The notes: a model not told the origin generated them from the letters alone. 64,000 nucleotides of DNA from a virus (IMGVR_UViG_3300035527_000189:2889-66888), one strand, 5' to 3'; positions 6,927-33,391 are shown, numbered from the stretch's first letter. Numbers and translations: made by a program.

Positions 6927-9900
6927 ATGGAAAGACAGGAAATGATGGACTTGTTCAAAGCAACTGCCGAAGTTAATACTCCTGAAGGCATGGCAGCATA
7001 TCGTGCTTTTGCTGCCGCTTTGACAACCCCTATCTTACAAAAAATTGAGTTGGAATCAGTTATGCGCCAACTCTTTACAGTGGAAAGACTAGGTCCGGGA
7101 GCTCAAGCAGTATATCCTGTGGCTGGATGACTTTGGCCACACTTATAGTAATATAAGTTAAATAAAAAGAACTATATGCTGGAACATCCTGTTAATCTTT
7201 AGGTACTAGCCTTAGGGCAGTGAAAATCTTAAAGATAGGGACAATCAGCAGGAAACCTTTTATAGGGTTCCTCAACGACTATACGTTCTTCCCCTCAATC
7301 GAGGGTGATGATATAGTCTGAACTTGGCGGAGACGCCAAGAGGGAGTGCCGAAGAGCCTCCCCGCCTAACAGGTAAAGCTGAGGTCTTTATAAGTAACAG
7401 AGTGGAAGATTTCGAAATTCCGGTTTGGGTGCTCCCTGGACTTGGATATGTTGCACAGAACTTCATTGAGGGTATTTAAACCAATGCTCTCGTAAAATTT
7501 CACTAAATGCTGGAAAATCTTCTAAAGATTATTTTACTGACATCGTAAAAATAAATAATACATGGAGACAATCATGCAGGAAACTATTACAGAAAAGAAT
7601 ATAATTGAATGGATCGCAGGCTTTTATGACGCAGAGGGTTGTTTTAGGATAAGTAAACAAAATAGGAAAAAGTATATTTCCTATAGTCCTAGAGCAATAA
7701 TTAATAATACTGATTTAGATACGATGGAGTATATAATCTCTACGTTAGTTAATAAATATGGAATAAATGGTCATGTTAGAAATTCTAATCCTACTACTAA
7801 TAGAAATGCAGTTAAATATTTGGAAATAGGTAGAATAACTAAAGTGATTGATTTATGTGAGTTATTACTTCCGTATTCTATAGTAAAATACGATGAAGTA
7901 AAGTTATTACAGGAATTTTGTATATCTAGAAGAGATAGATTTATTAGGTATAATATAAAAAATTTCAAACTTCCATATAGTAACTATGAGATATCTCTAT
8001 ACGAATCTATGGCAGAATTTAAAGCTCATAAAAAAGGTAGAAAGTGTTTAAGTTACATCCCAATATATCCAGAGATACGAAATGAAATTACTTGGCCATG
8101 GTTGGCAGGTTATACGGATGGTGATGGCAGCTTTAGTATTAACAAAAGAGGTACAGCTTCTTATTGTTTAGCGACTTCTAATCCTACTGCGAGTGATATG
8201 TTAAAAGCTTTTTTTATTGACAAAAATATATCTTTTTATTTTGATAGTCAATTACCTTCTAAAAACCATTTAAGCACTTGTAAGCGCAGAATATTTAGAT
8301 TTTTTATAAATAATGTTGAAGATATACTATACATTATAAAAAATACAGGAAAATATCTTGTATCGAAATATGATACAGCACAGCTTATGCAAGAATACTG
8401 TGAGTTAAGAAAAGATAGAAAGGGTAAATGGCGAACAGAATATGAAAATTTATTTGTTGGAAGAATGGCTAAATTAACACAATAGATTCCCCAGAGACTA
8501 TACGTGAAACACAACTGTGAAGATATAGTCCGAACTCATAGGAGACTATGAGAGGAGAGGTCGAAGAACTTCTCCCGCCTGATAAATCAGGTCATTAAAG
8601 TAACAGAATATTTGATTGGTGAAGAAGTTTATGTCCCAACATTCACAATAGATGCAGCAGCAGATTGGAAAATAACCTATGCTAGAGATTCTCGTATTGA
8701 TATTGCTACAAGAGCAGCAAATCGAGCAGCAAAAGATCTAGCTAATTACGAGGAAGAGTCAAAAACACATGCTCCTTAATATGGTGACATATTAAGCAAA
8801 CCACGAATATGCTGGAAGGTCTCGTGAGGCTATAAGTACTAGTCGATAGACAGTAATAATCTTATAGATAGAGAAAATCAGCAGAAATGGAGATTTTATG
8901 ATAATTGAAAGAGAAATAATAGAAAATACATATAAAGGTAATATTTTTGAAACTGCTTCAGAATTAAGAGTTTCAGTACAAACTATAATGGCATCACTAA
9001 AAAAATATAATATAAAGTTTGAAAAACCCAAGCACATATATGGTGATCTAAAAAGAACATCATTTTCAAATTTTCAAAAAGGTCTTTTGATAGGTAGTAT
9101 TTTAGGTGACGGTCATTTAGAAAAAAGATCACATTTGAAAAATGCTTCTTTTAGAGAAGAACACTCTATGGATCAAGTGGAATGGTTAAAATGGAAATAT
9201 TATAATCTTAAACCATTTACAACTTCCAATATGTGGAATAGGGATAGAGGAAAGAAATTTCTTATGCCAGATGGTAAGGGAGGCAAAAAATACTATAATA
9301 TACAAAAAGTATGTGCTATGTCTACAAACACTCACCCATATTTAACTGAACTGCATAATGAGTTTTATGTTGATAGAATTAAAACAGTGCCTTTTGATTT
9401 TATAGATAAAAATTTTGACATAATAGCACTTGCGACATTGATTGGTGATGATGGAAATCTATGTGAAAATAGTGTCAGATTTTGTACTGATAGTTTTACA
9501 AAGAAGGAAGTTTATTTTTTGGCTGATATTTTTTCTAAATTTTATAAGAGTAGGATAACTGTCAGAGAAGAAAAGAAAGATAAGTTCAGAATTATATTTA
9601 CTGAAGCAAGAAAAGATATTAATTTTTTTAATACAATAAGAGATATATTACCTAAATGTATGCATCATAAAATTACTCCAGTTCTCAACGAACACCAAGT
9701 GGCTACTCAATGAGTAGATGGTATGTTCTGAACTGTGTGGAGACACACAGAGGGTAAAAGAAATTTTGCCCCGCCCAAATAAATTTGGGTCTTAAAAGTA
9801 ACAGATTTGGTGGTTGGCGTGTAATTATGCCAGCAGCAACCTCGGCTTTTAGTGGTAAAGGTCTATTAGGTTCTAGGCCGGCACCAATTTATGAAATTAA

Positions 9901-11406
9901 CCCTACAGCTCAGGGTGCAGGTTATCTGTCAAAAGAGCTAATTAATAAGATGATTGTTGGATTTAAGAGAATCGGTAGAACACTTACAGATCTCTATGTA
10001 TCACCAGAAGATGCGGCTGATATTCGTGAATGGACCAATTAAACGATCCCGCTGCTCGGTAACGAGTAGATGAAAAACTAGTGAATTCGGAAGAACTCTC
10101 AAATAATTGAGACAATCCCGAGCCAAGTACTGAAAAGTAAAGGTGTAACGACTAAATGGAGGCAACAAATGGCTTATAATGATATAAAAGGTTTAAGAAT
10201 TACAAAAAATAACGAGTTAATAGTACAATCTAAACATCAAGCTAATGGAGTAATAATTGGTATGATGTTAGGAGACTCTTCAATGAATAGATATTTAGTA
10301 ACCAGTAAAAAATTTGAAGGTATGTGTGCTCGTAGAAGAAGCAGGATACAAATGAGCACTTCACATTGCCCTAAGCAATTAGATTACTTGCTGTGGAAAG
10401 AGTCTATTATTAAATCTTATATTAAATTTGGGAAGTTAATTACTGATAGAAGTAAACAAGATGATGGATTTATTTATTATAAAAAAACATCATTAGTAGA
10501 AAGTTCTAAAAACTTAGTTTATCTTTTTGAAAATTTCTATGCGTTAGGCAAAAAAAGAGTGACATCTAAAATTTTAAATAGATTAACGGATTTAGGTTTG
10601 AGTATTTTGTTTATGGATGATGGAAGTTTGATTCCTCATTCTTATAGAAAAGATGGTTCTATAAGGGCTTTGAAATTAAGACTACACACCTCAAATTTTA
10701 CATATAATGAGCATTTAATAATGAAAGAGTATTTTGAAAAAAAATCTATTTATTTTAATATTACTAGAGATAAAAAGTACTATTGTCTGTCAACAGGAAA
10801 AAAAGACAGTATAAGTAATTTCGTTAATATAGTTAGTCCTTTTGTAAATTTAGTTGATTGTATGAAATATAAAATTAAGCCGTTTGATGCTTTTGTAAGC
10901 GCTAGTTATCCTTATGATGTGTAGGGATAAAGATATAGTCTGATCTGCATGGCGACATGCAGTTAACATTATGCGACACGGATATTGACCCAGTAACTCG
11001 TAGAGAAATTTTCCAGGCTTCCGGTATGGGAAGTATTTGGAATGTAACTCTTCACGAACTTCAGCATTTAGGTGCTACCGGTCTTTATAATATTAATGGT
11101 AACACTGCAGCTTATGGTAAGTTTATTGCAGATGGCTCCAATGATTATAATGGTTATAGCCTTGATAATCCAAATATTACTAATGCTGATGGTACTGTAG
11201 GTACTCTTGGTGAAACCCAGATTCTTGGTTTTGATCACAGTGTTAATGATTCTCTTGTTATGCCTATTCGTAAAGAATATGAAGCTCATGATGATCCAAC
11301 ACTTTTACGTATGCAGAAACAGGGATTTTTTGGATGGGCTGAAATCGGTTTTGCATGCCTTGACAGTAGAATGCTTGGTATGGGTGTTATCGACAGATCA
11401 CTATAA
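6927..11406 (+). CDS. Major capsid protein, spliced: join(6927..7124,7405..7473,8615..8759,9810..10035,10974..11406), 356 aa
   Basis: Exons sum to 1071 nt and join in frame: YPVA|EDFEIPVW..FIEG|IGEEVYVPTF..YEEE C|GWRVIMP..EWT|DTDIDPVTRRE; RBS aggagg; position after scaffold and decoration genes. Last junction ambiguous (alternative 10039/10981, 355 aa). Confidence 0.85.
7125..7404 (+). ncRNA. Group I intron MCP-1, ORF-less (280 nt)
   Basis: P1 gtggcT/Ggccac with U.G pair, P4 tgctgg/tcagca, P7 gacta/tagtc, terminal G, P10 gaag/cttt; in-frame TGA at 7128. Confidence 0.92.
7474..8614 (+). mobile_element. Group I intron MCP-2 (1141 nt) with endonuclease ORF in L6
   Basis: P1 gagggT/Gctctc, P10 attggt/accaat, P3 tttcac/gtgaaa, P7 gacta/tagtc, ends aacagaatatttG. 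Confidence 0.92.
7574..8485 (+). CDS. Intron-encoded two-motif LAGLIDADG homing endonuclease
   Basis: WIAGFYDAEG and WLAGYTDGDG; GGAG at 7564 favours ATG 7574 (ORF track start 7562). Confidence 0.9.
   Translation: MQETITEKNIIEWIAGFYDAEGCFRISKQNRKKYISYSPRAIINNTDLDTMEYIISTLVNKYGINGHVRNSNPTTNRNAVKYLEIGRITKVIDLCELLLPYSIVKYDEVKLLQEFCISRRDRFIRYNIKNFKLPYSNYEISLYESMAEFKAHKKGRKCLSYIPIYPEIRNEITWPWLAGYTDGDGSFSINKRGTASYCLATSNPTASDMLKAFFIDKNISFYFDSQLPSKNHLSTCKRRIFRFFINNVEDILYIIKNTGKYLVSKYDTAQLMQEYCELRKDRKGKWRTEYENLFVGRMAKLTQ
8760..9809 (+). mobile_element. Group I intron MCP-3 (1050 nt) with endonuclease ORF in L6
   Basis: P1 gagT/Gctc, P4 tgctgg/tcagca, covaried P7 gaaca/tgttc, P3 ccac/gtgg, ends aagtaacagatttG; phase-1 junction t|gt restores Cys. 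Confidence 0.9.
8898..9713 (+). CDS. Intron-encoded LAGLIDADG endonuclease with N-terminal HTH-like segment
   Basis: GLLIGSILGDG and ALATLIGDDG motifs, F.EEHS.DQ.EWL.WK segment; RBS ggag. Confidence 0.88.
   Translation: MIIEREIIENTYKGNIFETASELRVSVQTIMASLKKYNIKFEKPKHIYGDLKRTSFSNFQKGLLIGSILGDGHLEKRSHLKNASFREEHSMDQVEWLKWKYYNLKPFTTSNMWNRDRGKKFLMPDGKGGKKYYNIQKVCAMSTNTHPYLTELHNEFYVDRIKTVPFDFIDKNFDIIALATLIGDDGNLCENSVRFCTDSFTKKEVYFLADIFSKFYKSRITVREEKKDKFRIIFTEARKDINFFNTIRDILPKCMHHKITPVLNEHQVATQ
10036..10973 (+). mobile_element. Group I intron MCP-4 (~938 nt) with endonuclease ORF between P7 and P3
   Basis: P2 ctgctcg-gtaa-cgagtag, core gaattcgg..aatcccgagc, P7 gacta/tagtc, P3 aactag/ctagtt, P9 ctgcat/atgcag; exact ends uncertain by a few nt. 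Confidence 0.85.
10169..10924 (+). CDS. Intron-encoded LAGLIDADG endonuclease
   Basis: GVIIGMMLGDS and GLSILFMDDG motifs; RBS ggagg. Confidence 0.88.
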   Translation: MAYNDIKGLRITKNNELIVQSKHQANGVIIGMMLGDSSMNRYLVTSKKFEGMCARRRSRIQMSTSHCPKQLDYLLWKESIIKSYIKFGKLITDRSKQDDGFIYYKKTSLVESSKNLVYLFENFYALGKKRVTSKILNRLTDLGLSILFMDDGSLIPHSYRKDGSIRALKLRLHTSNFTYNEHLIMKEYFEKKSIYFNITRDKKYYCLSTGKKDSISNFVNIVSPFVNLVDCMKYKIKPFDAFVSASYPYDV

Positions 11407-11446
11407 TTATTATGTATATTTTTTGATATAACATATATATAAATGT

Positions 11447-11495
11447 AACACTAAAAATCAGGGTTACTAAAAAATCCTGATTTTTAGTGTTTACT
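11447..11495 (+). terminator. 16-bp inverted repeat after the capsid gene (probable terminator)
   Basis: aacactaaaaatcagg (11447-11462) / cctgatttttagtgtt (11476-11491), followed by an A/T tract. Confidence 0.65.
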
Positions 11496-11560
11496 TATAT
11501 AAATTAGTGCTTATATTGTAAGTGTTAGTTTATTAATATGTTTATATGCGAGGTTGTAAT

Positions 11561-13057
11561 ATGGTGAGTTATAAAAGTAAGTTATGTGAACTTTGTGGTA
11601 AAGAATATAATCCTACAAGCCCAAAACAAAAATATTGTATTGATTGTAAAGATGAGGGTAGAAAGTTAGCAGATCGTAAACGTGATAGAAAACGAAGTAG
11701 AGTTAAAAATAATTATAAAAAGTATACAAGAGTATGTCCATCTTGTGGTATGGAATTTACTACATATTATTCTAAAAAGATCTATTGCGGCGATTATGGG
11801 TGCGATGTTGATAGAGTAAGTGTTAAAAATAAACGTGGGCATAAAAATAGAGATAAACAATATCTTATAGAAAAAGGCAAGTGCTATTATAATGAGAACC
11901 GCGATTCTTGTCTTTTGAATAAATCAAAAAAATATAGAGAATCACACCCAGATGCCCCGCCATATGTACCTGGTAAAGTACATAAACACCCTATAGATTA
12001 TATAAAAAGGTACATTAGTGATCGTGGTTATACTTTATTGTCTGATAAATATGTAAATTCTAAAGAAAAGATACTTTTGAGATGCCCTGAAGGCCATGAG
12101 TGGGAAACCACATTTCATAATTTTAGAGATTTAAGTGATAGTACTGGTAATAGGTGTATGGTTTGTTATAGCCAAAATAACTATATATCCAGATTAGAAC
12201 AAAAAATAAGAGATTTTTTTGAATGTAAACTTCCTGATGTAGAAGTTATATACAACGATAGAACTCAGATAGGCCCTAAAGAACTTGACTTGTATTTACC
12301 TAAATATAATTTAGCTATAGAAGTGTGCGGACTTTATTGGCATTCAGACACCGCAAATAATATACATCGTGGGTATCATTATGATAAAATGATCTCATGT
12401 AAGCAAAAAGGTATAAGATTAATTACATTGTTTGAGGATGAAATAAATAAAAAATTTGATCTTGTTGCATCTAGAATATTACAGGCTATAGGTAGGGTAT
12501 CTAATCGTATTTATGCCAGAAAATGTGTAGTACATGAAGTACCTAATAAAATAGCTTCTAAATTTTTTGATAAAAATCATCTACAAGGATTTTGTCCCGC
12601 CAGAAAGATTTTTGGTTTATACTATAATTGTGAATTAGTAGCTGCTATGTCTGTAGGTAATGTCACTAGAAATCATGCTAATTTAGGAAAAACTCTGGAA
12701 TTGAAAAGGTTTTGTTCTATTAGTGGTACTACTATTATAGGCGGGGCAAGTAAATTATTTAAATATGTAGTTTCTTATGCTATAAATAACTCATATGATA
12801 ACATTAAGTCTTATTGTGATATGAGGTACGCAAATATTTTTAATCCTGTTTATGAAATATTAGGGTTTAACTTATTATCAGAGACTAAATATACCCCACA
12901 TTACTTTAAATCTGGTGTGCGTTATAGAAATATGTCATTACGTAAAACATCTAAAGAACGTCTTACAGGTAAAACTGAATTAGAACTTCGTTTAGAACAA
13001 GGTTATAATAGAATATGGGATTGTGGTCATAGAACATACCTATATACATTTAACTAA
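11561..13057 (+). CDS. Free-standing Hef-like endonuclease (Zn fingers + Vsr/DUF559-type PD-(D/E)XK + C-terminal domain)
   Basis: CxxC fingers, CPEGH Zn-ribbon, ELDLYLPKYNLAIEVCGLYWH, ELKRFCS..GGASKL, RIWDCG; RBS gaggt favours ATG 11561. Confidence 0.7.
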   Translation: MVSYKSKLCELCGKEYNPTSPKQKYCIDCKDEGRKLADRKRDRKRSRVKNNYKKYTRVCPSCGMEFTTYYSKKIYCGDYGCDVDRVSVKNKRGHKNRDKQYLIEKGKCYYNENRDSCLLNKSKKYRESHPDAPPYVPGKVHKHPIDYIKRYISDRGYTLLSDKYVNSKEKILLRCPEGHEWETTFHNFRDLSDSTGNRCMVCYSQNNYISRLEQKIRDFFECKLPDVEVIYNDRTQIGPKELDLYLPKYNLAIEVCGLYWHSDTANNIHRGYHYDKMISCKQKGIRLITLFEDEINKKFDLVASRILQAIGRVSNRIYARKCVVHEVPNKIASKFFDKNHLQGFCPARKIFGLYYNCELVAAMSVGNVTRNHANLGKTLELKRFCSISGTTIIGGASKLFKYVVSYAINNSYDNIKSYCDMRYANIFNPVYEILGFNLLSETKYTPHYFKSGVRYRNMSLRKTSKERLTGKTELELRLEQGYNRIWDCGHRTYLYTFN

Positions 13058-13074
13058 CCATTCTTTATAATAGA
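13054..13074 (+). promoter_or_regulatory. Putative late-promoter element CTAAC-N11-ATAGA
   Basis: ctaac cattctttata ataga abutting RBS gaggag of TTG 13085. Confidence 0.45.
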
Positions 13075-13084
13075 GGAGTATAAA

Positions 13085-13381
13085 TTGATATTAGAGCTTA
13101 TTACTTTAGTAATATTTACAGAAGCTGTAACTGAAATAGTTACTAAATCTGAAATTTTTAGTCCAATAAAAGAGTGGTTTTTTAATAGGCGCAACAAAAA
13201 AGTATTTAATTTTATCCATAATCTACTTGATTGTGGTTATTGTTTTTCAGTATGGGCAAGTTTTTTTGGTTTAATTTTATTAATTACTGAAAATAATTTT
13301 GCCTATTTTTTTATAACAGGAGTCGTTGTACATCGTTTGTCCAATTTTTTTCACTTTGTATTAGATAGAGTTCGTGGATGA
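13085..13381 (+). CDS. Small membrane protein (DUF1360-like, possible holin)
   Basis: TTG start with RBS; hydrophobic helices; LLDCGYCFSVW motif. Confidence 0.55.
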   Translation: MILELITLVIFTEAVTEIVTKSEIFSPIKEWFFNRRNKKVFNFIHNLLDCGYCFSVWASFFGLILLITENNFAYFFITGVVVHRLSNFFHFVLDRVRG

Positions 13382-13430
13382 AAGAATAATTTATAGGAAA
13401 AGGGAAATATAATTAGAAAAGGAGAGTAAA

Positions 13431-13898
13431 ATGAATGGATATGTAAAAAATATATCACCAGAATGGATCTATGCTATGAAAAGAGCTATTAGACCTGGTG
13501 GTGAAGTTCCGCTCGATGAATTATATGAGCAGTATGGTAAGAAGTATAATATGGAGCCAGACGATGAGTTTATTAATTGGCTTACAAATGTAAAACTGAA
13601 GAATGTTAATAAATGGAAGATAGTCTTTGATACTAATGCTAAATCCGAAGCTGTTGAAAAAGAAAAAGAAGGTAATAAGAAAACAAGTAATTCTAGTGTT
13701 ACACCTATGGTTTCTAAAGGTATGCAGGTGGAGGATATTGTTAATTTGACAGTTCGGAAAGCTCGTGAAGAATTACCAAAGATTACTGATTTAAATTTAC
13801 TTAAATATTCTTTACAAGAGGCTAACCAGTTGTCTAATAAAGATAGTTTATGTAGAATTATTCGAAAAAGAATAAAGGAATTACAGATTTCAAGGTAA
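13431..13898 (+). CDS. Hypothetical protein
   Basis: RBS aaggag; 155 aa. Confidence 0.65.
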   Translation: MNGYVKNISPEWIYAMKRAIRPGGEVPLDELYEQYGKKYNMEPDDEFINWLTNVKLKNVNKWKIVFDTNAKSEAVEKEKEGNKKTSNSSVTPMVSKGMQVEDIVNLTVRKAREELPKITDLNLLKYSLQEANQLSNKDSLCRIIRKRIKELQISR

Positions 13899-13957
13899 TT
13901 TGATTCTCACTCTAGTGAGATTTAATTGCACCGATATGTAATTTGGGTGGTTAAAAC

Positions 13958-14284
13958 ATGATTATATTAAGAAAAAAGAGTACTAACCATGTTGAAAAAA
14001 TCATACAGCCCGGGCAAACGGAGCAATTCTTTGATTTAGATTTAAGTGGGAATGAAGCTTATGACTGGAATATTAAAATACGGTGTATGGGGAAATCTAG
14101 TATAACTAAAATTACCAGTCTGTATAACGACGACTTTATAGAATCTACTAAGTATGCTTTTTTGGGTGTAAGATTTAATGCTGATACTAATATTTTAGTA
14201 TCAGGGGGCTCATCTTGTAGTCTTTCGGTTACAAACAATGAGTCTGAATTAATGACGTGTAGTGTTAAAGTAAAAACATTTTAA
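13958..14284 (+). CDS. Hypothetical virion protein
   Basis: 108 aa, beta-rich, in operon. Confidence 0.55.
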   Translation: MIILRKKSTNHVEKIIQPGQTEQFFDLDLSGNEAYDWNIKIRCMGKSSITKITSLYNDDFIESTKYAFLGVRFNADTNILVSGGSSCSLSVTNNESELMTCSVKVKTF

Positions 14285-14299
14285 GGAGGAATTTAAATT

Positions 14300-16477
14300 A
14301 TGGCACTTTTTGCTATTAAAAACGGTCTTAAGTTATTTAATTCCGATCAGGTAGAGTCTGATGTTCTTAATGGTACAGTAGATCCATCACAAGGTGCTGG
14401 TATCTCTGCCCCGCAAGGCTCACTCTACTTAAAGCAAGATGGTATTTCGTACAAGAAAACCGGTGCTGGTGATACTGATTGGCAGCCTTACAGTGAGATT
14501 GAAGGTGGAGGACTTCTTTGGTCCACTATTAGTGGTGCTACTACAGCAGTGTCTAGTAAGGGTTATATTCTAGACTCTAGTTCTGCTGGATTTACAGTTA
14601 CTATGCCCGCCTCTCCTGAAGAAGGCGATTCAGTAGGTTTTGCTGGTCTTGGTGATATTGAAACTAATAATATAACTGTTAGTCTTAATGGGAACAACCT
14701 AAATGGTTCTAGTGATGATTTAGTTATTGATCTTAATTATTGTTACTTCGAGATGTTGTACACAGGTGATGCAACAACTGGTTGGGTTTTATCTAACACA
14801 GATGAGTCTGGAAATGTAGATAATATCCAAAACTTTATTGGTAACAATGATAATGTTGATGCAGGTACTACAGAATTTACCGAAGAAAATTATATTGTAG
14901 GTGGGGACTCTCTTGAAGATGCTATTGATAAATTAGATATAGCTCTTGCTGATGCAGAGGCCACCACTTCTGGTGTTGATGCAGATCTTTCTGCTCTAGA
15001 TGCAAGGGTAACTACTAATGAAGGAGATATTTCAACTAATATCTCTAATATTGCCACAAACTCTGGTAATATTGCGACAAACGCTTCTGATATCGATACT
15101 CTTGAAAGTGATATGTCCACTGCTCAATCTGATATTATTACTAATACTAATAATATTGCTACAAACTCTGGTAATATCGCATCTAATGATACTGATATTA
15201 GTAATTTGGAAACTTTTGTTGGTTCTGCTGGAAGTTCTTCTCCAGATTATACTACAGAGTATTATATCACTGATGGCGACGATCTTGAAGCAGCTATTAG
15301 CAAACTTGATGCGGCACTTAATACTGTTGACAATATAGCTCAAACTGGTGTTAATTGGCAACAGACAGCTAAAGCTATTACGGCTGATGTAGTTAATACT
15401 ACAGTTGGTGCTTACTCTGGAACTGATCACTTTTCTGATGACGATGTCCCTTTCTGGACCCATGATGACTGGTCAGATGGTGATAGGGTTGTATCAATGA
15501 ACGCAGCTACTTCAGGTGTTATTTATACCTGGGATGATGGTGCTGATCAATGGAATCAATCAGGCTCTCTTGGGGCTAATGATGCTATTGCGGTCCAGTA
15601 TGATTTCCCAGATGCTCCTGGTAGTCAAGAAGACGGCGCAGCTTATATGATGAAATCAGATCTATCAGGTCTTATCAAGATTGCTGATTTTGACCTTGAA
15701 ACAGCAGCTTCTATTGCTATTTCTTCTGGTTATACTGCTACTTCTGGTACTATTTCAGCTTCTGATTCAGTTGAATCTGCAATTGAGAAACTTGATTGGG
15801 AAATTCAGAATGCAGTTGCTGGTGATATTTCAGCTCTAGAATCTAGAGTAACAACTAATGAAGGTGATATTGATACTCTTGAAAGTGATATGAGTACTGC
15901 TCAAGCAGATATTATCACTAATACTAATAATATTACCACTAATTCTGGAAATATTGCAACAAACGCATCTGATATTGATTCTCTTGAAGGTAGAATGGAT
16001 ACAGCTGAAACTGATATTCTAACTAATGCTGGCGATATTACTACTAATTCTGGTAATATTGCTGACAATTATACCTATATTACAAACGTAGATACTGCAC
16101 ATGATAATCTTGCTGCGGCTGTTCTAACTGAAACCTCTACTGTGGTAGCGGATTCAGCTACAGATACAGTACTTGATACTGTGACCCAGGCAGGAAATTT
16201 AGGTGCTAAATGGTTTGTAATTGCATATGATGGTGCGGGCAAGAGATATGCTTGTGAAATCTATGCTATGCATAATGGGGCAACTTCTGCTGACCTTACA
16301 GAGTATGCTATTTTAAGTATTGGTACCCCAATACTTGATGTAGATTTTGATATTGCAGCGGATGGTACTAATATGAGTTTAACTGTAGATAATGCAAGTG
16401 GGGGATCTGTTACTGTTAAGACACAGAGAGTTACAGTTCAAACTACTGAAGTTGATACTACTGCAGTACTTTCCTAA
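14300..16477 (+). CDS. Fibre/whisker-like virion protein with coiled-coil repeats
   Basis: RBS aaggagg; repeated TTNEGDI / IATNSGNIATNASDIDTLE heptads and three D(S/D)(L/V)E.AI.KLD knots; fibre-type TVTMPASP domain. Confidence 0.7.
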   Translation: MALFAIKNGLKLFNSDQVESDVLNGTVDPSQGAGISAPQGSLYLKQDGISYKKTGAGDTDWQPYSEIEGGGLLWSTISGATTAVSSKGYILDSSSAGFTVTMPASPEEGDSVGFAGLGDIETNNITVSLNGNNLNGSSDDLVIDLNYCYFEMLYTGDATTGWVLSNTDESGNVDNIQNFIGNNDNVDAGTTEFTEENYIVGGDSLEDAIDKLDIALADAEATTSGVDADLSALDARVTTNEGDISTNISNIATNSGNIATNASDIDTLESDMSTAQSDIITNTNNIATNSGNIASNDTDISNLETFVGSAGSSSPDYTTEYYITDGDDLEAAISKLDAALNTVDNIAQTGVNWQQTAKAITADVVNTTVGAYSGTDHFSDDDVPFWTHDDWSDGDRVVSMNAATSGVIYTWDDGADQWNQSGSLGANDAIAVQYDFPDAPGSQEDGAAYMMKSDLSGLIKIADFDLETAASIAISSGYTATSGTISASDSVESAIEKLDWEIQNAVAGDISALESRVTTNEGDIDTLESDMSTAQADIITNTNNITTNSGNIATNASDIDSLEGRMDTAETDILTNAGDITTNSGNIADNYTYITNVDTAHDNLAAAVLTETSTVVADSATDTVLDTVTQAGNLGAKWFVIAYDGAGKRYACEIYAMHNGATSADLTEYAILSIGTPILDVDFDIAADGTNMSLTVDNASGGSVTVKTQRVTVQTTEVDTTAVLS

Positions 16478-16516
16478 TTTTGGATAAAAATAGTTTTAAT
16501 TAATTAATTAATCAGA

Positions 16517-24636: not shown

Positions 24637-24657
24637 AAAGAAGGGAGGTAGAGTAGT

Positions 24658-25206: not shown

Positions 25207-25218
25207 GGTTATATTAAT

Positions 25219-25755: not shown

Positions 25756-26555
25756 TGGATATTCGCCCACTAGTAGCAAATGGATATAATTTATGGACGA
25801 CTACAATTGATTATTCAGATTTGGAAACTGTTTCTTATATCTGGAATGGGACCGGGAATGCTGATGTTTATGGTGATTGGATTCATTCTGGAGAGGGTGT
25901 GGAAGTTCCAGCAGCTATGTATCGTGGAACTAATGGTATGTCTGTAATTGGTGTGGCTAATAACACAGAAATGGTTTTTACAAGTAATACCTTAAAGTAT
26001 CTTGATAATTTTGATTTTCTTTCTTTTTGGGTAAATATAAGATCTTGGGAAATTGGTAGAGATTTTAAAATAAAACTTGAAAATTCTGATGGTTACCAAA
26101 GCGATACACTTAAAATGGCTAATTATATTGATTATTTTAATACTTTAGATTGGCAGAGAGTGGTGATACCTTTACATATATTTAATATGAATTCAGAGGC
26201 TATAGATACTGTTAGATTCATATTAACTAAACATTTAGATTTTTGGATGGATGAATTAATGCTTACATTGGGTTCATCTATTATTATACCTGTAGGTAAA
26301 CCTGATATGGAAACACAGGATGTTGGAAATAAAACAATGAGAACTAATATTAATATATCCCCTACACCTAAAGTTAGAACTAAAATGGAGGAATTAATGC
26401 TTACATTGGGTCCGTCTATTATACCTGAAGATGAACCTGATATGGAAACACAGGATGTTGGAAATAAAACAATGAGAACTAATATGAATATATCCCCTAC
26501 ACCTAAAGTTAGAACTAAAGTAGTGGATAATTTTCCAGGACCCATTAATTTATAA
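25755..26555 (+). CDS. Virion protein with carbohydrate-binding-like domain and duplicated C-terminus
   Basis: FLSFWVN..WQRVVIPL..F..IDTVRF pattern resembles galactose-binding-like CBMs; translational coupling taATG. Confidence 0.5.
   Translation: MDIRPLVANGYNLWTTTIDYSDLETVSYIWNGTGNADVYGDWIHSGEGVEVPAAMYRGTNGMSVIGVANNTEMVFTSNTLKYLDNFDFLSFWVNIRSWEIGRDFKIKLENSDGYQSDTLKMANYIDYFNTLDWQRVVIPLHIFNMNSEAIDTVRFILTKHLDFWMDELMLTLGSSIIIPVGKPDMETQDVGNKTMRTNINISPTPKVRTKMEELMLTLGPSIIPEDEPDMETQDVGNKTMRTNMNISPTPKVRTKVVDNFPGPINL
26247..26519 (+). repeat. Tandem duplication 138 nt + 135 nt
   Basis: 26247-26384 and 26385-26519 both encode M(D/E)ELMLTLG..PDMETQDVGNKTMRTN.NISPTPKVRTK. Confidence 0.92.
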
Positions 26556-26567
26556 GGCGGTGAGAAT

Positions 26568-27560
26568 ATGATAGGTTTAAATTTTACAGTAGAAAATATA
26601 AGTACGATAATACAAGTTTATGATCAGATACAGATTATAAAATACACTGGAGATGAAGCTGATCAACCAGATACTCCAGTAGGTAGTATAGCTAGTTTAA
26701 CTGAATGGGTTACGGTGTCTGGAACTGATAGTTATAAAGTACCAGTAGATTTAGTAGCTGGTGTGAGTAGTTACCAGACTTATGATTATGCTGGTGATTA
26801 TAGTGATTGGTATAGTTCTAGGTATTATAGTACTTCTACTGGTTCTTATAGTGGTTGGTCAGATCCTATATTAGGAGAAACTGGTGATTTATACTATGAT
26901 CCTATATTTCCACCAGAGGTAGAATATGGTACAGCTGATCAGAGAATAATTGATAGAATAAGACTCTATATTGGAGATCCTTTAGGGCTTAGAAGAGAGT
27001 ATGGAGAAGAGGCACTGTCCTCTATTCATCCTGATGGGAGGACTTATGAAATGGATGAAAAGGGGTTCCCATGTTATATTACAATGGGTGGAAAGACCTT
27101 TACAGATACCTTAAATCCATCGGTTAATGGTTATAAGTTGTTGAAGTTTAATGAATTTATAGATACAACTTGTACTGTATGTTCAGGTATAACTAATGTG
27201 TGTGGGGACGATGAGATAAAAGAAATAGAAAATGGAGTCGATATTTGGTACTATACTTTTCGTCATTCGGATAGACAGATTATGGAGGCTTATGATAATT
27301 GTCCTCCACCTATAGGTCTTACTGAAACTACTGCTACATCCACAGCTTATATGCTTCAAACAGCTATAGATTTGATTAGAAAAGAGTTATTGGAAGATGC
27401 TGCAGAGGATGGGGCACGTATTGTAGATGACCGAACGTCTTATGATCCTTCGTCGGGCCAAAAGATAAGAAAGGCTATTTTAGATGATTTAATAAAACAA
27501 TTAAGAGATTTAGTTAATTCACTTAAAATGAACGGCATCACCGGAGTTCTTATAGATTAG
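26568..27560 (+). CDS. Putative head-tail connector / neck protein
   Basis: Position; IIDRIRLYIGD and helical C-terminus ending ITGVLID. Confidence 0.45.
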   Translation: MIGLNFTVENISTIIQVYDQIQIIKYTGDEADQPDTPVGSIASLTEWVTVSGTDSYKVPVDLVAGVSSYQTYDYAGDYSDWYSSRYYSTSTGSYSGWSDPILGETGDLYYDPIFPPEVEYGTADQRIIDRIRLYIGDPLGLRREYGEEALSSIHPDGRTYEMDEKGFPCYITMGGKTFTDTLNPSVNGYKLLKFNEFIDTTCTVCSGITNVCGDDEIKEIENGVDIWYYTFRHSDRQIMEAYDNCPPPIGLTETTATSTAYMLQTAIDLIRKELLEDAAEDGARIVDDRTSYDPSSGQKIRKAILDDLIKQLRDLVNSLKMNGITGVLID

Positions 27561-27593
27561 TATAAGTTATATATAATATTAATAGGAGTCAAT

Positions 27594-28184
27594 ATGAGAG
27601 GAAGAATTAGTTTTAAAACTAAAGAAAGATACAGAAAATCTATGCGGGATGTTATTAAAGGTCTTGGTAGGAAAGTTTTAGTTTATAAACAACCTATAAA
27701 GAATGAGTGTGCTAATTGCTTCTTTGATAAATTTACTGGTACTTCTTCTGGAAAATGTAAATGGTCTTATAACCAAGCTAAAGATAAGCAGGCTGAATAT
27801 GAGGCATCTGGTGGAACAGATCTGCGTTATAAATACTTTAGAGCTGGCCGTTGCCCAATATGTAGAGGACAGGGTTATATAGAAATACCTAGGAAGGTTT
27901 GGGTGGACTGTCTTGTTACTTGGAATCCTAGTGAAGATAGTGCTAATAATTTAACTTTTACACCAGCGGGTACTGAAGGTTCTACTGTAGTTAGATTAAA
28001 AACTGATCCCAAATATTTTGACATATTTAAGAACTGTGATAAGCTTGAGATTGATGGTATAGAGTGTAAGTTGTCTAAACCACCTACTGTTAGAGGGCTA
28101 GGTAATCAAACTACTTTAATAATTGTAGCCTTTACTACTGAAAAGCCTCAATTAGATAGTGGTGAGGTAATCAAAGAGTATTAA
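27594..28184 (+). CDS. Putative head-closure/neck protein with Zn-binding Cys pairs
   Basis: ECANC..C and RCPICRGQGY; RBS aggag. Confidence 0.45.
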   Translation: MRGRISFKTKERYRKSMRDVIKGLGRKVLVYKQPIKNECANCFFDKFTGTSSGKCKWSYNQAKDKQAEYEASGGTDLRYKYFRAGRCPICRGQGYIEIPRKVWVDCLVTWNPSEDSANNLTFTPAGTEGSTVVRLKTDPKYFDIFKNCDKLEIDGIECKLSKPPTVRGLGNQTTLIIVAFTTEKPQLDSGEVIKEY

Positions 28185-28825
28185 TGGGTGTTGAAAGTAA
28201 AATAAAAAAGATGGCTAAAGACATTGATGCTTTTGTATTAGAGGCATTAAAAGAAGTATTGAATGAAGAGGTAGAGAATATTAAGTATTTAATTATGGAT
28301 GGCTTTAATCTTTTATCGGCCATGGTAACTAATCCAGATAGTAAAACAGATCCTATATTATATAGAAGGAAATTTGAAGATAGAATTGAGAATTTTAATT
28401 ATATAGAGGTTGGAGAAAATAGTGTAAAAATACACACACCTGATATGGAAAATTTTGATTTTTCTGAATTAGAAATTGTAGAACAGATATTAGAAGGTAC
28501 AGTAGGGGTGTTTGTTGAAATATCACAAGAGGATATGGAAAAAATTACCGGTAAGACTGTAGTAAATAATAAACCAGTAGATCCATCAGTTCCTAAAAAG
28601 GATAGAATATATTTAGAAAGATATACTCCAAAGGTTAGACAGAAAGAAAAAGAGGTTCTTGAAAAGAAACTAGTTAGATTTCCTTTTTCAAACACACCCC
28701 CTTTATATGGGAGGGTTTTTGGTCCGGCAGAAGAGTATGTAAGTGATAATATCGAATTTTGGTCAGATGAGGCCTTAAGAAAAGGTAGAAGCAAAATGTT
28801 AGATTATTATAAGGGGGTAAGATGA
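28184..28825 (+). CDS. Hypothetical neck/tail-completion protein
   Basis: Coupled taATG; position. Confidence 0.5.
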   Translation: MGVESKIKKMAKDIDAFVLEALKEVLNEEVENIKYLIMDGFNLLSAMVTNPDSKTDPILYRRKFEDRIENFNYIEVGENSVKIHTPDMENFDFSELEIVEQILEGTVGVFVEISQEDMEKITGKTVVNNKPVDPSVPKKDRIYLERYTPKVRQKEKEVLEKKLVRFPFSNTPPLYGRVFGPAEEYVSDNIEFWSDEALRKGRSKMLDYYKGVR

Positions 28826-29769
28826 TGCAATCATTGAGGAAGGAAGATTTAAGTTTATCTCATCATATAAAACACACCGCACTTAGAGATTTTATTGAAA
28901 AAGAAGAACAGGTGCCTCTACAATTGATGTCTAATATGTCTTGTACTGGTACATATGTCTATGAAGCTATTACTTCTACCTTACCTAGTCCTACAGATAG
29001 GGGAAGGGGTTGGGTTTATTTTGATTGCCCACAATATGATGAGTACGGTGATTGTATTTATTCATTACCGACTTGTAATCCTGAATTTGTTATGGTTTCA
29101 GGTACTGATGCACATGGTGCATCTTGTATAGGTACTCCAGAGCAATCGGAAAGAGTTATAGTTTATGACAGTAACTTACAAACAATTTCAGGGGTTCCAT
29201 ATGTAATAGATTATCTTGATGGTAGGGTTGTTTTGGCTACTAATTCAGTGATACCTAAATATGTTGATTATTATTGGAATTATGTAAGTGTTGTCGATGA
29301 ATGGGCAGCTATAGAAGCTTCAGATCCACCAGTAGTTGTAATAGATATGTTTGGAACTGATAAAGATGGTTATCAGTTTGGCGGGGGAAAGAAGGTTAAT
29401 AGAAAAGTTGATATACATGTATTTGCATCTAATACATCTGAAAGAAATGATCTTGTAGAAGCCATACATGATAGTTTATATAATAAGAGTGCCCCAATTT
29501 ATGAATTTCCTACAGGTGATGTTTTAGATTTTGATGGGACTTTTTATGGTAGAAAAGATAATCCAAATAAACTAACCTCTCTATTTAATAGAACGACATT
29601 AAATAATACAAGTGTCACACACGGAGGAATGATGTTTCAAAAAGTTTCTTCTAGGCACGTTAATTTACCTCTGGTTATGTCGTTAAGTAGGAATGAAGTC
29701 ATGTTGAGTGACTTAAATGCGTACAGATCTAGAATATCTTTTGAAGTAGAAATATATACAAGGAAATAA
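28822..29769 (+). CDS. Putative tail terminator/completion protein
   Basis: PPVVVID..G.....GGG......VDIHVFASN.SERNDLVE pattern; upstream of the tail tube gene. Confidence 0.5.
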   Translation: MMQSLRKEDLSLSHHIKHTALRDFIEKEEQVPLQLMSNMSCTGTYVYEAITSTLPSPTDRGRGWVYFDCPQYDEYGDCIYSLPTCNPEFVMVSGTDAHGASCIGTPEQSERVIVYDSNLQTISGVPYVIDYLDGRVVLATNSVIPKYVDYYWNYVSVVDEWAAIEASDPPVVVIDMFGTDKDGYQFGGGKKVNRKVDIHVFASNTSERNDLVEAIHDSLYNKSAPIYEFPTGDVLDFDGTFYGRKDNPNKLTSLFNRTTLNNTSVTHGGMMFQKVSSRHVNLPLVMSLSRNEVMLSDLNAYRSRISFEVEIYTRK

Positions 29770-29770
29770 T

Positions 29771-31195
29771 ATGCCAGCAAAACTGACTATTGAAAAGGTA
29801 AGGAAAGAATTTAAGGATAAGGGTTTTGAGTTGATTACTGATACTTATATCAATTCAAGGCAGTTATTTAGATTCAAATGTAGTTGTGGTAATGAGTCTC
29901 AAATGAGACTTGATCACTTAAGACAAGGAGTCAAATGTGCTTATTGTTCTGGGAATAAAAAACTAACAATAGAACATGTTAGGAAAGAACTGCTTAAAGA
30001 GGGATATACATTAGACAGTACTACTTATACTAATAGTGCTACTAAATTTAATTATACTTGCCCAAAAGGGCATAAAGGTAGTATTAATTGGAATAATTGG
30101 GGCATAGGTCATAGATGTTCAGTGTGCTTTGGTACTAGTAAATACTCTACTGATTATATAAAAGAAAATTTGGCGGAAGAAGGATATCAACTTATTGATA
30201 AAGAGTATTTAGGTAATAAATATAAATTAACACTTATTTGTCCCAACAAACATGAATATAAAGTGTCTTGGGATAATTGGAAAAGTAAAGGATCAAGATG
30301 CCCTAAATGTAACGAGATAGGAATTTCAAAACCAGAAAAAGAAATTCAGGATTTCTTAAAGAGTTTCGATATTAGTTTTAGAACTAATGATAGACTTTTA
30401 ATTAAACCATATGAATTAGATATAGTAATTCCTTCTAAAAAGATAGCTATTGAATACTGTGGTTTATACTGGCATTCCGAAATTTTAGGTAAGGATAGAA
30501 AATATCATTCACTTAAATTAGATAAATGTTTAGAGAGGGGCTACAAATTAATAACTATTTTTGAAGATGAATGGTTGAGTAAAACTGAAATAGTTAAAAA
30601 TAGATTAAGAAATCTTTTATTTGATTATAATAATCTAACTACAGTATATGCAAGAAACTGTGTTGTTAAAGAAATAAGTAGTAAAGTAGCAAAAGAGTTT
30701 TGTATTGATAATCATATACAAGGCTATGCTATTAGTAATACAAGATTAGGTTTATTTTTAAAGGATGAATTAGTATCAGTTATGACATTTGCTAAACCAT
30801 CATTAAGTAAAGGACAGAAGATTAGTAAAGAATATGTATGGGAATTATCTAGGTTTTGTTCTAAATCAGGTTTTAGGGTTATTGGTGGAGCATCGAAACT
30901 CTTGAAGTATTTTGAGAGGAATTATGACTGGTCAGAGATTTTTTCATATGCTGATAGAAGATGGTCTGATGGTAATTTATATGATAAGTTGGGGTTTGAC
31001 TATATTAATACTACTAAACCTAATTACTGGTATTTTAAAAATAATACTAAAAGATATCATCGTTTTTCTTTAAGGAAAACAAAAGAAGACATTAAAGAAA
31101 TGACAGAATGGGAAATTAGAAAATCACAAAATTGGAATAGAATCTGGGATTGTGGAAATTTAAAATTTAATAAGACAAAGGAAAGGTTTGCCTGA
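29771..31195 (+). CDS. Free-standing Hef-like endonuclease, paralogue of 11561
   Basis: Three C..GH / CP..H Zn-ribbon repeats, ELDIVIPSKKIAIEYCGLYWH, ELSRFCS..GGASKL, RIWDCG. Confidence 0.7.
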   Translation: MPAKLTIEKVRKEFKDKGFELITDTYINSRQLFRFKCSCGNESQMRLDHLRQGVKCAYCSGNKKLTIEHVRKELLKEGYTLDSTTYTNSATKFNYTCPKGHKGSINWNNWGIGHRCSVCFGTSKYSTDYIKENLAEEGYQLIDKEYLGNKYKLTLICPNKHEYKVSWDNWKSKGSRCPKCNEIGISKPEKEIQDFLKSFDISFRTNDRLLIKPYELDIVIPSKKIAIEYCGLYWHSEILGKDRKYHSLKLDKCLERGYKLITIFEDEWLSKTEIVKNRLRNLLFDYNNLTTVYARNCVVKEISSKVAKEFCIDNHIQGYAISNTRLGLFLKDELVSVMTFAKPSLSKGQKISKEYVWELSRFCSKSGFRVIGGASKLLKYFERNYDWSEIFSYADRRWSDGNLYDKLGFDYINTTKPNYWYFKNNTKRYHRFSLRKTKEDIKEMTEWEIRKSQNWNRIWDCGNLKFNKTKERFA

Positions 31196-31286
31196 CGATA
31201 TCGACGCCTCATCATATCAAGGGCAAATAAGGAAGTTTTATACCAACCTGAGTGCTATTTAAAATTGACAGGAGGAAATAAAAAAT

Positions 31287-33391
31287 ATGGCACGTAACAG
31301 AATAATTTATGCATCACAAAGTGTTTGGGTAAATGGTGAGGTACTTTACAGAGTTCAGTCTCTTGGTACTACAACTTCATTTACAAGCGAAGATATTTTC
31401 GAGCTCGGTCCAAGTGGCCCTTCATATCAGTAATGATATGTCGAAACTCCTCTAATTGCTGGAACTCCCTAACATATAGAGATGAGGGTAATCAGCAGCG
31501 AAGCCTTAATATTTTAAGGAACGTTCAACGACTAGGCGAAAGCCGTAGGTTCTAAGTGGAATCGAAACGGGGAGGTTCCTAGTGTAATAGGAACTTGATA
31601 TAGTCTGAACTTATAAGAAATTATAAGCCACATAGGTGGGAGCAAAAGTAACGATTTTGCTTTAACAAAATGCATCTCGATATTATCGACGTAGTGGACG
31701 ATGTCAGGTAGGCATCCTTATTAGGTAACTAATATGTAAAATTTCACGATATGCTGGAAACTCTCGTTAAGCTTTAGGTACTAGCCTTAAGGCAGTGAAA
31801 ATCTTAAAGATAGAGACAATCAGCAGGAAACCTTTTATAGGGTTCCTCAACGACTGATGTGTGAAACCCCTTAAATAAGGGTGATGATACAGTCTGAACT
31901 TGGCGGAGACGTCAAGAGGGAGTGCCGAAGAGCCTCCCCGCCTAACAGGTAAAGCTGAGGTCTTTACAAGTAACAGTATGCCCTGCAGTAAGTGTAACAC
32001 TAAATACCAATGATTTTGGTGATGTAAAAACTCTTGCAGTACTTGCACAAGTAGCTCCAGCGAAAATTATGATGGACGCTACCGCTACTTCAAGTAATGC
32101 TAACTTAGTTGCCGGTGGGAGCACCTATTTACATGGTGTAGCTCTTGCAGATTTCGCGGTAACTTGTGGTAACCTTACTGGGGTTACGCTTTGGGCTCCA
32201 GTACAGGGTGAATGTTCTATTGGTACATTGGCTAATGACATTGATCAGACTATGTTTCTTGATGAAGTTTATATCAACAGTTTTGAACTTAGTTATTCAA
32301 CTGGAGCTAATGCTACCGAGAACTACGGAGCAGAAACAGATAATAAGATGTGGTTATTGAATGATGGTAAATTTGTTAATTATCAGGAAATCACCGTTAC
32401 AGGTGGAGCGGTTTCTGGTACTTTGAATTTAGCAGATGACGAAGAGGTAGCTGTACTTACAGCTGGTATTGGTTTCTTGAGAAAAGATGCTAATGGTGCT
32501 CCAGCGGTAACTTGGTGGGATTCCAGTGAAAACGAGATGGAGAATGTTGAAATTGCAGTTGGTACTGCTCCTGTAGATAATACTTATATTTATCACAACA
32601 CTGGTTCAGGACATATTATCTATTTCCCAACCGTGACCAAAGTTCCAGCAGATGGAGATAAAATCCAGTTAGTCTACTCTGCTAGTGCTTATGCAGCGAT
32701 GAATGAATATTTTATACCTCTAGAAGAACCTACTGAAAGACCAGATAGTGTAGGTGCTTTAAGACAGGGACAAGTAGAAGTTTACATTGTAGATCCAGAT
32801 GATATTTCAGCTGTTGATTATACTAATGCTTGGCGCTTAACCAGTGCCTCCATTTCTGCAGATCTTACTCGTGAGCCACTTGCAGAACTTGGTCATTTAG
32901 GTCCTTATGATAGACCGTTAACTCTGCCTATCCCAATTACTATGAGTGTTGATTCTACTGCTGGTGATTTGGAAAACTGGGCAAAGTTTGCAGGGCTTTT
33001 GAAAGATTACCAAGATGAAACAGTAGATGATATCGATCTTGCTGATCTTATGAACAAAAGTAATTTAATTTTGGTTGCTAAGGTTTTTCAGCAGACTGAT
33101 GAGGAAGCTGGCGGAACCCACGATAATCGTAAGGTTCTTACTGGTTCGGAACTAGAAGGTGAGGAGTATTTCTTTGATGGTACAATGTCTACCTATTCAG
33201 GTGGAGACACCGAGAGAGCTCTAAAAACTGTTGTTGTTAAGAATCTAAAAATCACTGACGAAGGTATGACTTTGGATGTAGGCTCTAATGCTACCCAGAC
33301 CTTTGGTTTTAGATCCACTAATGATCTATTTGTAATTAAAGGTGATGTTTCTTACGACACTGTTAAATCTAGTATTGTACGTAACGTTTAA
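31287..33391 (+). CDS. Major tail (tube) protein, spliced: join(31287..31409,31673..31704,31981..33391), 521 aa
   Basis: RBS aggagg + ATG 31287; exons sum to 1566 nt: MARNRIIYAS..IFELG|HLDIIDVVDDV|PAVSVTLNTND.. in frame with the track ORF at 32069; followed by chaperones and TMP. Confidence 0.85.
31410..31672 (+). ncRNA. Group I intron Tail-A, ORF-less (263 nt)
   Basis: P1 ggT/Gcc, P2 catatc/gatatg, P4 tgctgg/tcagca, P7 gacta/tagtc, P7.1 ggc-gaaa-gcc, ends taacaaaatG; in-frame TAA at 31431. Confidence 0.9.
31705..31980 (+). ncRNA. Group I intron Tail-B, ORF-less (276 nt), near-identical to MCP-1
   Basis: P1 gatgT/Gcatc, P3 tttcac/gtgaaa, core shared with 7125-7404, ends aagtaacagtatG; phase-2 junction gt|c restores Val. 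Confidence 0.92.

Follow-up and report, generated by a model that had tools for sequence, protein, structure and literature searches.

Two group I introns without an open reading frame (ORF) lie 24.5 kb apart in a 64-kb stretch of viral DNA, hereafter the window, which covers bases 2889-66888 of a 98-kb IMG/VR virus record (CheckV completeness 37%). MCP-1 interrupts the major capsid protein gene and Tail-B a gene that we call tail-tube-like. We found that the two introns are almost the same over two tracts and clearly different upstream of and between them, with their pairings intact. This mosaic is likely the product of patchy ectopic gene conversion between the co-resident introns, filtered by helix integrity. 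A first reading of the sequence (the original prediction) had already placed both introns correctly and called them ORF-less, as homologues and alignment confirmed. The features on which the argument turns are the following.

6927-11406 (plus strand): major capsid protein gene, interrupted by four introns
7125-7404 (plus strand): intron MCP-1, ORF-less group I intron of the capsid gene, between exon 1 (6927-7124) and exon 2 (7405-7473)
7131-7140 (plus strand): MCP-1 guide, made of the P10 strand CUUU (7131-7134) and the P1 internal guide GGCCAC (7135-7140)
7167-7172 (plus strand): MCP-1 P3 5' strand AAGAAC, partner GUUCUU at 7285-7290, marker of the capsid-site lineage
7197-7280 (plus strand): shared tract 1 (P5a-c, P5-3', P4-3', P6 hairpin, P7-5'), 2 differences (7215, 7239)
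7281-7314 (plus strand): unconverted block, with J7/3, the P3 3' strand (7285-7290), P8 (7292-7305) and J8/7 to the T/C site 7314
7315-7400 (plus strand): shared tract 2 (P7-3', P9, P9.1, P9.2, 3' tail), 2 differences (7336, 7391)
31287-33391 (plus strand): tail-tube-like gene, with two introns and 32 nt between them
31673-31704 and 31981-33391 (plus strand): exon 2 (32 nt) and exon 3 of the tail-tube-like gene, flanking Tail-B
31705-31980 (plus strand): intron Tail-B, ORF-less group I intron of the tail-tube-like gene, phase 2, between exon 2 and exon 3
31705-31716 (plus strand): Tail-B guide, made of the P10 strand CAGG (31705-31708) and the P1 internal guide GCAUC (31712-31716)
31742-31747 (plus strand): Tail-B P3 5' strand UUUCAC, partner GUGAAA at 31861-31866, marker of the tail lineage
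31772-31855 (plus strand): Tail-B copy of shared tract 1
31891-31976 (plus strand): Tail-B copy of shared tract 2

By protein-guided searches of IMG/VR, we collected 36 tail loci and 80 capsid loci (L-numbered), many of which carry introns of the same family, ending in ...AAGUAACAG. The family occupies many different sites in both genes, most of its members bear LAGLIDADG ORFs in P6, and its hosts form a group of large uncultured phages. Introns at the exact MCP-1 site, after GTGGCT and before GAAGAT, were found in L071 and L247, and one at the exact Tail-B site, after GATGT, in L031. L247 was recovered as the second MCP-1-site orthologue by a guide-hairpin pattern scan of IMG/VR, the other hits of which were mostly due to chance. 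The MCP-1 guide is also present in L071 and L247, and the Tail-B guide GCAUC in L031. The P3 AAGAAC/GUUCUU is common to MCP-1, L071 and L075, while L247 has AAGAAC with the 3' strand GUUCUC; this P3 lineage is found at two distinct capsid-gene sites, that of MCP-1 and L071 and that of L075. Both L071 and L031 have LAGLIDADG_2 ORFs in P6 (273 and 279 aa). Finally, the same mosaic of both introns is found in a sister strain (contig 3300035039_000077), which shares 98.4-99.6% identity with the window and whose MCP-1 is 100% identical.

Over their whole length, MCP-1 and Tail-B are 80.4% identical (55 of 281 alignment columns differ). The near-identity claimed in the original prediction thus holds for the two shared tracts, both at 98%, and not for the introns as wholes. 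A repeat finder matched 7171-7280 with 31746-31855 at 93% and 7291-7400 with 31867-31976 at 94%. The longest identical runs measure 54, 41 and 23 nt, and 86 nt against Tail-B of the sister strain, from which tract 2 of MCP-1 shows zero differences. The P6 of MCP-1, devoid of an ORF, is identical to that of Tail-B. On the other hand, identity falls below 60% in the unshared P1, P2, P3 and P3'-P8. This clustering is not random: when the differences were permuted, 0 of 20,000 trials reached the observed identical runs, and the maximum chi-square breakpoint (column 46) was reached by 0 of 2,000 permutations. From P7-3' to the 3' end, the median identity within the family is 69% and the 99th percentile 89.6% (29 distinct 3' cores), whereas the MCP-1/Tail-B pair stands at 96.8-98.9%. 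Their likeness therefore goes well beyond that between introns of the same subgroup, the level that the original prediction had named as one that would refute it.

The borders of the shared patches and the islands that they leave out follow the structure of the ribozyme. First, the patch ends fall in blocks conserved throughout the family, namely ATGCTGGAA (P4), CAACGACT (P7-5'), GATGATA (J8/7, a block that reaches into P7-3'), AAGTAACAG and, last, the 3' tail AAGUAACAG. Second, an unconverted island is found precisely where a tract separates the two strands of a helix. Thus, the 5' strand of P3 (7167-7172) is upstream of tract 1 and its 3' strand (7285-7290) sits between the tracts. Third, within tract 1 the lone retained base of P5-3' (7239) compensates the retained P5-5' strand. 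A co-variation of the L9-P5 tetraloop-receptor contact, considered as the cause of this retained P5 pair, was dropped since L071 does not fit it.

Comparing each segment with introns at the same site showed that the unshared parts have site-lineage ancestry. Relative to L071, MCP-1 is 78% identical in the 5' module, 81% in P3'-P8, 60% in P5a-c and 75% in P7'-P9; the corresponding values relative to Tail-B are 56%, 59%, 96% and 97-99%. The same holds at finer scale, with J7/3-P3'-P8 (7281-7306) at 81% to L071 and 59% to Tail-B, P5a-c through the P5 3' strand at 60-71% to L071 and L247, and the tract-2 region at 88% to L029, a tail-site intron, and 71-75% to L071, L247 and L075. Likewise, Tail-B is 100% identical to L031 in P5-5', 75% in P3'-P8, 71% in P5a-c and 70% in P7'-P9, and both have 37 contiguous identical bases around P3-P5.

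Trees built from the two kinds of columns are in conflict. In the unconverted columns, MCP-1, L071, L247 and L075 form a clade (support 99/100), the rows nearest to Tail-B are L031, L029 and L030, and a constraint uniting MCP-1 with Tail-B is rejected by the approximately unbiased (AU) test (p 0.0005); with a slightly wider set of columns, Tail-B, L031, L029 and L030 form a clade with support 91/93. In the tract columns, MCP-1 is 0.008-0.023 substitutions per site away from Tail-B, 0.14 from L029 and about 0.8 from L071, and the AU test rejects its placement in the capsid-site lineage (p 0.027 with L247; 0.0005-0.004 without it). The two column sets were defined after the pairwise pattern had been seen, and the clustering in the tract columns is therefore partly circular. 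What the trees add independently is that the unconverted columns group with the site orthologues.

Since guide, P2, J2/3 (in MCP-1), P3 and P3'-P8 match introns at the same site and the trees conflict, these comparisons identify MCP-1 and Tail-B as long-term residents of their own sites. The original prediction had offered two routes, a recent ectopic move or a homogenisation of the core by recombination between introns, either of them producing a chimeric ribozyme with a new 5' module. The clustered differences, the segment identities, the conflicting trees and the AU tests speak for recombination and a chimeric ribozyme. The recent move is not supported, as the unshared parts match the same-site introns L071 and L247 (MCP-1) or L031 (Tail-B), and neither is the new 5' module: it is the 5' modules that are old, while the shared tracts arrived later, most likely in MCP-1. 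As for the core, the term is imprecise, since P5a-c, P6, P9-P9.2 and the adjoining conserved strands were exchanged, but P3 and P8 were not.

Both introns belong to the RF00028 class of group I introns and are predicted to self-splice. Against a curated Rfam gathering score of 50 bits, RF00028 scored 71.8 bits for MCP-1 (E 1.5e-18, in a 316-nt scan of 7105-7420) and 59.8 bits for Tail-B (E 1.1e-12). When 64 kb or 4.5 kb were scanned with RF00028, MCP-1 went unreported, as did the other capsid introns, among which MCP-1 is the one that was re-scanned in isolation. The speed filters, which are stricter with longer input, are probably the cause of this miss, and standard Rfam scans of long sequence may overlook such introns during annotation. 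The splice sites are supported by intronless homologues. Removing the introns gives collinear frames, and the exon peptides run on unbroken in dozens of these homologues: capsid exons 1 and 2 adjoin in most related phages (for example L047, 5365-5562 then 5563-5631), and the tail N-terminus is contiguous where the introns are missing (for example L006, 3845-3967 then 3968-4117).

The guides and the P3 helices differ between the two introns, each being perfect in its own context as the original prediction had stated. In MCP-1, the exon ends 7119-7124 (P1) and 7405-7408 (P10) are the partners of the guide: GUGGCU (7119-7124) pairs with GGCCAC (7135-7140), with U.G at the splice site, P10 is CUUU/GAAG and the terminal G is G7404. 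In Tail-B, GAUGU (31700-31704) pairs as perfectly with GCAUC (31712-31716), again with U.G at the splice site, P10 is CAGG/CCUG and the terminal G is G31980. Four of the six P3 pairs are changed on both strands with pairing kept throughout, and one pair each differs in P5 and P8, both still paired. All annotated helices of MCP-1 are fully paired. Those of Tail-B are fully paired in the alignment from P3 to P9.2, while its P1 and P2, shifted there by indels, are found in their own register in the energy fold. Across the family, P3 covaries through at least 12 complementary types, and P9 also covaries. Our manual annotation of the core is consistent with the Rfam alignment; a minimum-energy fold finds P1, P2, P5a-c, P6, P8 and P9 and misses the P3/P7 pseudoknot. 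By eye, the P5a-c extension, P9.1 and P9.2 are present and P7.1/P7.2 were not seen. Neither intron encodes an endonuclease, the L6 loop being 7 nt long and the longest stop-to-stop frame 41 codons.

We propose the following course of events. Each intron has long sat at its own site. In a recent ancestor shared with the sister strain, the two copies, 24.5 kb apart, would have recombined non-reciprocally, and two patches would have passed from one intron to the other, P5a-c/P6/P7-5' and P7-3'/P9-P9.2, with ends in the family-conserved blocks. Ectopic gene conversion could have done this, or template switching during break repair or replication. The exchange should predate the split of the strains, because the sister strain has the same mosaic and an identical MCP-1. 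A crossover over 24.5 kb would delete or rearrange virion genes, so that only patch-type products would be expected to persist. As both host genes encode virion proteins, the survivors would be the recombinants that still splice, namely those with the resident P1/P10 guide and with P3, P5 and P8 each taken whole from a single parent, and unconverted islands would remain inside near-identical sequence because the surviving helices need both strands from the same parent. With the tail-gene lineage as donor and MCP-1 as recipient, the transfer would also have replaced an endonuclease-bearing P6 by the ORF-less hairpin of Tail-B. The sister Tail-B differs from that of the window at the equivalents of 7336 and 7391, where it has the MCP-1 state, which fits with two later substitutions in the copy of this phage.

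A free-standing endonuclease gene adjoins each of the two host genes.

11546-13057 (plus strand): free-standing endonuclease gene just 3' of the capsid gene, paralogue of 29771-31195
29771-31195 (plus strand): free-standing HNH-type homing endonuclease gene just 5' of the tail gene (phrog_559, E 2.2e-124)

Their products are 39% identical (BLASTP, E 2e-72), and one could speculate that these enzymes made the DNA breaks from which the exchange started.

For the direction of the transfer, we lean towards tail to MCP-1. The shared P9 is identical to that of L029, the shared P9.2 matches L029 exactly and L031 with one difference, and the shared P5a-c has an extra hairpin, as in L029 and L031. By contrast, the capsid-site relatives L071, L247 and L075 have other P9 and P9.2 sequences than the shared ones, and their P5 region is shorter (L071, L247) or different and longer (L075).

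Several observations weigh against this reconstruction or limit it. The capsid introns L105 and L093 also bear the 'tail-type' P9.2, and the direction stays tentative because the family is a recombining network. The parental state was deduced from phages whose capsid exon 1 protein is 80-82% identical. Among close relatives we found no unconverted MCP-1 allele and no intermediate; the search of related phages for intermediates, which the original prediction had proposed, brought only the sister strain, which has the same mosaic, and distant site orthologues. Moreover, intron pairs of the same genome are not generally more alike than pairs from different genomes (Mann-Whitney p 0.71), and two other introns of the family in the same capsid gene are untouched by the exchange:

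7474-8614 (plus strand): intron MCP-2, of the MCP-1/Tail-B family, with a LAGLIDADG ORF at 7562-8485; junctions taken from intronless homologues
8760-9809 (plus strand): intron MCP-3, of the same family, with a LAGLIDADG_2 ORF at 8898-9713; boundaries inferred from collinearity with L047 (...EEE-CGW-RVIM...)

The longest exact match of either to MCP-1 or Tail-B is 9-10 nt. Homogenisation is thus pair-specific and does not extend to all introns.

MCP-2, whose ORF matches LAGLIDADG_1 of Pfam and whose P1 and P10 are GAGGGU/GCUCUC and ACCAAU/AUUGGU, does have the same P3 as Tail-B (UUUCAC/GUGAAA, at 7498-7503 and 8504-8509), in agreement with the original prediction. The module swapping that had been read into this match was rejected, UUUCAC/GUGAAA being the commonest P3 among the tail-gene introns of the family, with occurrences in L004 (the Tail-B copy of the sister strain), L008, L031 and L033. 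Because this P3 type is so common, the match carries no information specific to MCP-2, and since L031 shares with Tail-B the 37 contiguous bases around P3 mentioned above, it does not point to MCP-2.

Instead of a direct exchange between the two resident copies, the tracts could have been imported into one of the two introns, by homing or homologous recombination, from a co-infecting relative that already had them in its intron at the same site. We judge this improbable, even if some facts are in its favour. The family is widespread and mosaic in related phages, and the P9.2 type is found in the introns of several of them. Also, the sister strain has a third family intron in tail exon 1 (305 nt, ORF-less, L004 3111-3415, after ...GAGGACAT), which is missing from this phage (positions 31385-31406) and has 41 identical 3'-terminal bases in common with Tail-B. 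Around its insertion point, the two alleles differ by 5 synonymous changes in 22 nt, whereas the 98 nt before these are identical and the 1000 nt upstream differ at 2 positions. Such a cluster resembles a co-conversion tract, left by homing or by a precise loss of the intron. Because the sister strains differ in this intron and in the synonymous cluster, exchange between genomes is ongoing. However, L029, which comes nearest among the known outside sources of the tracts, reaches only 79-88% identity, compared to 96-99% between the resident copies. Exact-pattern scans of IMG/VR with either tract matched only the lineage of this phage, and scans with tracts or 5' modules gave nothing beyond the sister strain and the L071 and L031 contigs. 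In scans of metagenome contigs and GTDB genomes, the P4/P4' motif matched a very broad range of bacterial and archaeal group I introns and brought neither a closer relative nor a hint of the host. Finally, import would still require an exchange from intron to intron at some point.

A recent ectopic transposition, by reverse splicing or off-target endonuclease cleavage, followed by divergence of guide, P2, P3 and P8, is less probable still. The high identity of the tracts would be expected from it, and the family has indeed spread to many sites, the AAGAAC P3 lineage being present at two of them in the capsid gene. But the supposedly rewritten parts are not new. They are 75-89% identical to same-site introns of other phages, and the AU test on the unshared columns reported above rejects the union of MCP-1 with Tail-B. 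Moreover, P3 makes no contact with the exons, so that a move gives no cause for changing four of its six pairs, and a divergence of more than 40% beside 1-2% in the tracts is incompatible with a single divergence time. The sequences taken as rewritten are inherited at their sites, which leaves a recent move with a new guide without support.

An artefact of assembly, by repeat collapse or consensus polishing, is very unlikely. Exact repeats of 41-86 nt do exceed typical assembly k-mers, but three assemblies from different samples, on whose agreement the judgement rests, show the same mosaic with the same single-base differences (the further contigs come from samples 3300035039 and 3300035051). 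In addition, both genes are intact and collinear with their homologues, the remaining differences at 7215, 7239 and 7314 are kept in each copy, and the sister Tail-B differs at the two positions of tract 2 given above. That no special event took place and the tracts are merely slow-evolving parts of the family, as the coincidence of their ends with family-wide blocks might suggest, is hardly credible, given that they include the freely varying P5c, L6, P9.1 and P9.2 and that the pair, at 97-99%, lies above both the family median (69%) and its 99th percentile (89.6%), a distribution that refutes this reading.

Signs of conversion between co-resident introns recur elsewhere in the family. In 405 pairwise comparisons of 3' cores from the family, the top three exact matches by length (86, 54 and 53 nt) all join different sites of the same genome, and the longest between genomes is 42 nt. 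The 53-nt match comes from an independent pair in phage L093 (IMGVR_UViG_3300034152_000987). L093 also has two ORF-less capsid introns, at 4351-4593 and 5389-5642, that are near-identical from P3 to P6 and diverge in their 3' halves. The second may be a recent chimera: over its 3' half it is 95% identical to the neighbouring endonuclease-bearing intron, and its P3 has one mismatch.

Separately, the tail-gene intron region of L033 (IMGVR_UViG_3300005264_000830, 178-373 and 1491-1734) contains three copies of the 5' half-core of the family, two of them in tandem and one directly before the 3' core. These repeats suggest nested insertion or unequal recombination between introns.

The capsid assignment relies on the intronless homologue L047 (356 aa), which matched the phrog_2522 major head protein (E 1.5e-10) and PDB chain 6wkk_A, 'Gp27 major capsid protein' (E 8.8e-15). 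The product of 31287-33391 had no match in sequence searches of Pfam, PHROGs and PDB, and a protein atlas grouped its homologue with clusters bearing Phage_tube_2 (score 0.93). Because this atlas is the sole basis of the name, 'tail-tube-like' is a lead only. Among the isolated phages of INPHARED, no close relative of the capsid or tail exons was found at the DNA or protein level. The second intron of the tail gene is of another lineage than Tail-B:

31410-31672 (plus strand): intron Tail-A, ORF-less group I intron of another lineage, 32 nt 5' of Tail-B; RF00028 82.2 bits, boundaries set by intronless homologues

The middle of the tail-tube-like gene (32129-33025), just 3' of its introns, is a hot spot of divergence between the sister strains, where each 150 nt hold 9-23 differences, compared to 0-2 in most such intervals past 33176, and it may be a recombination or host-range cassette. 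In the capsid gene, the 3' end (10926-10962) of the fourth intron, MCP-4, is 97% identical over 37 nt to a sequence of phiS, a T4-like Escherichia coli phage, annotated as the large subunit of the anaerobic NTP reductase (nrdD). T4-like phages carry an intron in nrdD. On account of this match, MCP-4 is assigned to a different, T4-sunY-like intron lineage. Elsewhere in the window, a single ORF of 7747 codons occupies 35623-58866 on the plus strand.

The pair offers a natural, base-resolved case of ribozyme domain exchange within one genome, in which outgroups tell the kept parts from the replaced ones. This suggests that recombination between introns acts in wild phages too and can be fixed in major virion genes. 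For the compatibility of ribozyme modules, it would mean that P5a-c, P6 and P9-P9.2 are interchangeable while guide, P2, P3 and P8 move together. For annotation, near-identical intron tracts in unrelated genes need not imply recent transposition. Furthermore, conversion by an ORF-less neighbour could delete a homing endonuclease gene and yet keep the intron, a route that we consider because the P6 of MCP-1 copies that of Tail-B while same-site relatives keep a LAGLIDADG gene. The broader idea, that co-resident introns undergo frequent conversion and a structure-filtered concerted evolution in which an ORF-less paralogue provides a route to endonuclease loss, is a doubtful one for now. If true, ORF-less introns would serve as templates that purge the endonuclease genes of their neighbours, an extra step in the homing cycle.

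The best comparison is with bacteriophage T4, whose td, nrdB and sunY (nrdD) group I introns recombine in the laboratory. Exon shuffling by recombination between the self-splicing introns of T4 was reportedly described by Hall, Liu & Shub in 1989, and spontaneous domain shuffling between T4 introns is said to have been found by Bryk & Belfort in 1990. In both settings, co-resident phage group I introns recombine via short conserved core elements and give rise to chimeric ribozymes. The patch ends of MCP-1 and Tail-B likewise lie in conserved P4, P7 and J8/7 blocks, which we take to correspond to the core elements where the T4 introns recombined. However, the T4 products were recovered in the laboratory and are largely crossovers that rearrange or delete the genome, whereas here natural non-crossover patches are fixed in two virion genes, with guide, P3 and P8 kept from the resident intron, and long exact matches between co-resident introns are also present in one other wild phage, L093.

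Among intron-rich large phages, of which Twort with its orf142 is a further case, the Jug, crAss-like and Bastillevirinae phages similarly have several group I introns, with or without endonuclease genes, in essential genes. Jug phages have about 18 introns per genome (PMC12880540), and Bastillevirinae have introns that fit one subgroup model in the 5' half of the core and another in the 3' half (PMC11878797), a mismatch that hints at mosaic introns. In these studies (PMC12880540, PMC11878797) the hosts are mostly DNA-metabolism and terminase genes and exchange between introns was not analysed, whereas here the hosts are a capsid and a tail-tube-like gene, and site orthologues served as outgroups for resolving the chimerism at single-base level.

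Ectopic transposition would also give related introns with different guides in unrelated genes, and a review states that direct evidence is lacking for this route by reverse splicing or relaxed endonuclease specificity (PMC3984707). Because their guide-bearing modules are inherited at each site, MCP-1 and Tail-B have no need of it. Collaborative or trans homing (reviewed in PMC2988022) resembles our system in its ORF-less introns beside free-standing endonuclease genes, but it copies an intron to the same site of an intronless allele and leaves exchange across sites unexplained. Taken together, MCP-1 and Tail-B exemplify a known process, in nature and at good resolution, within an intron family not described before; they are not a new type of element.

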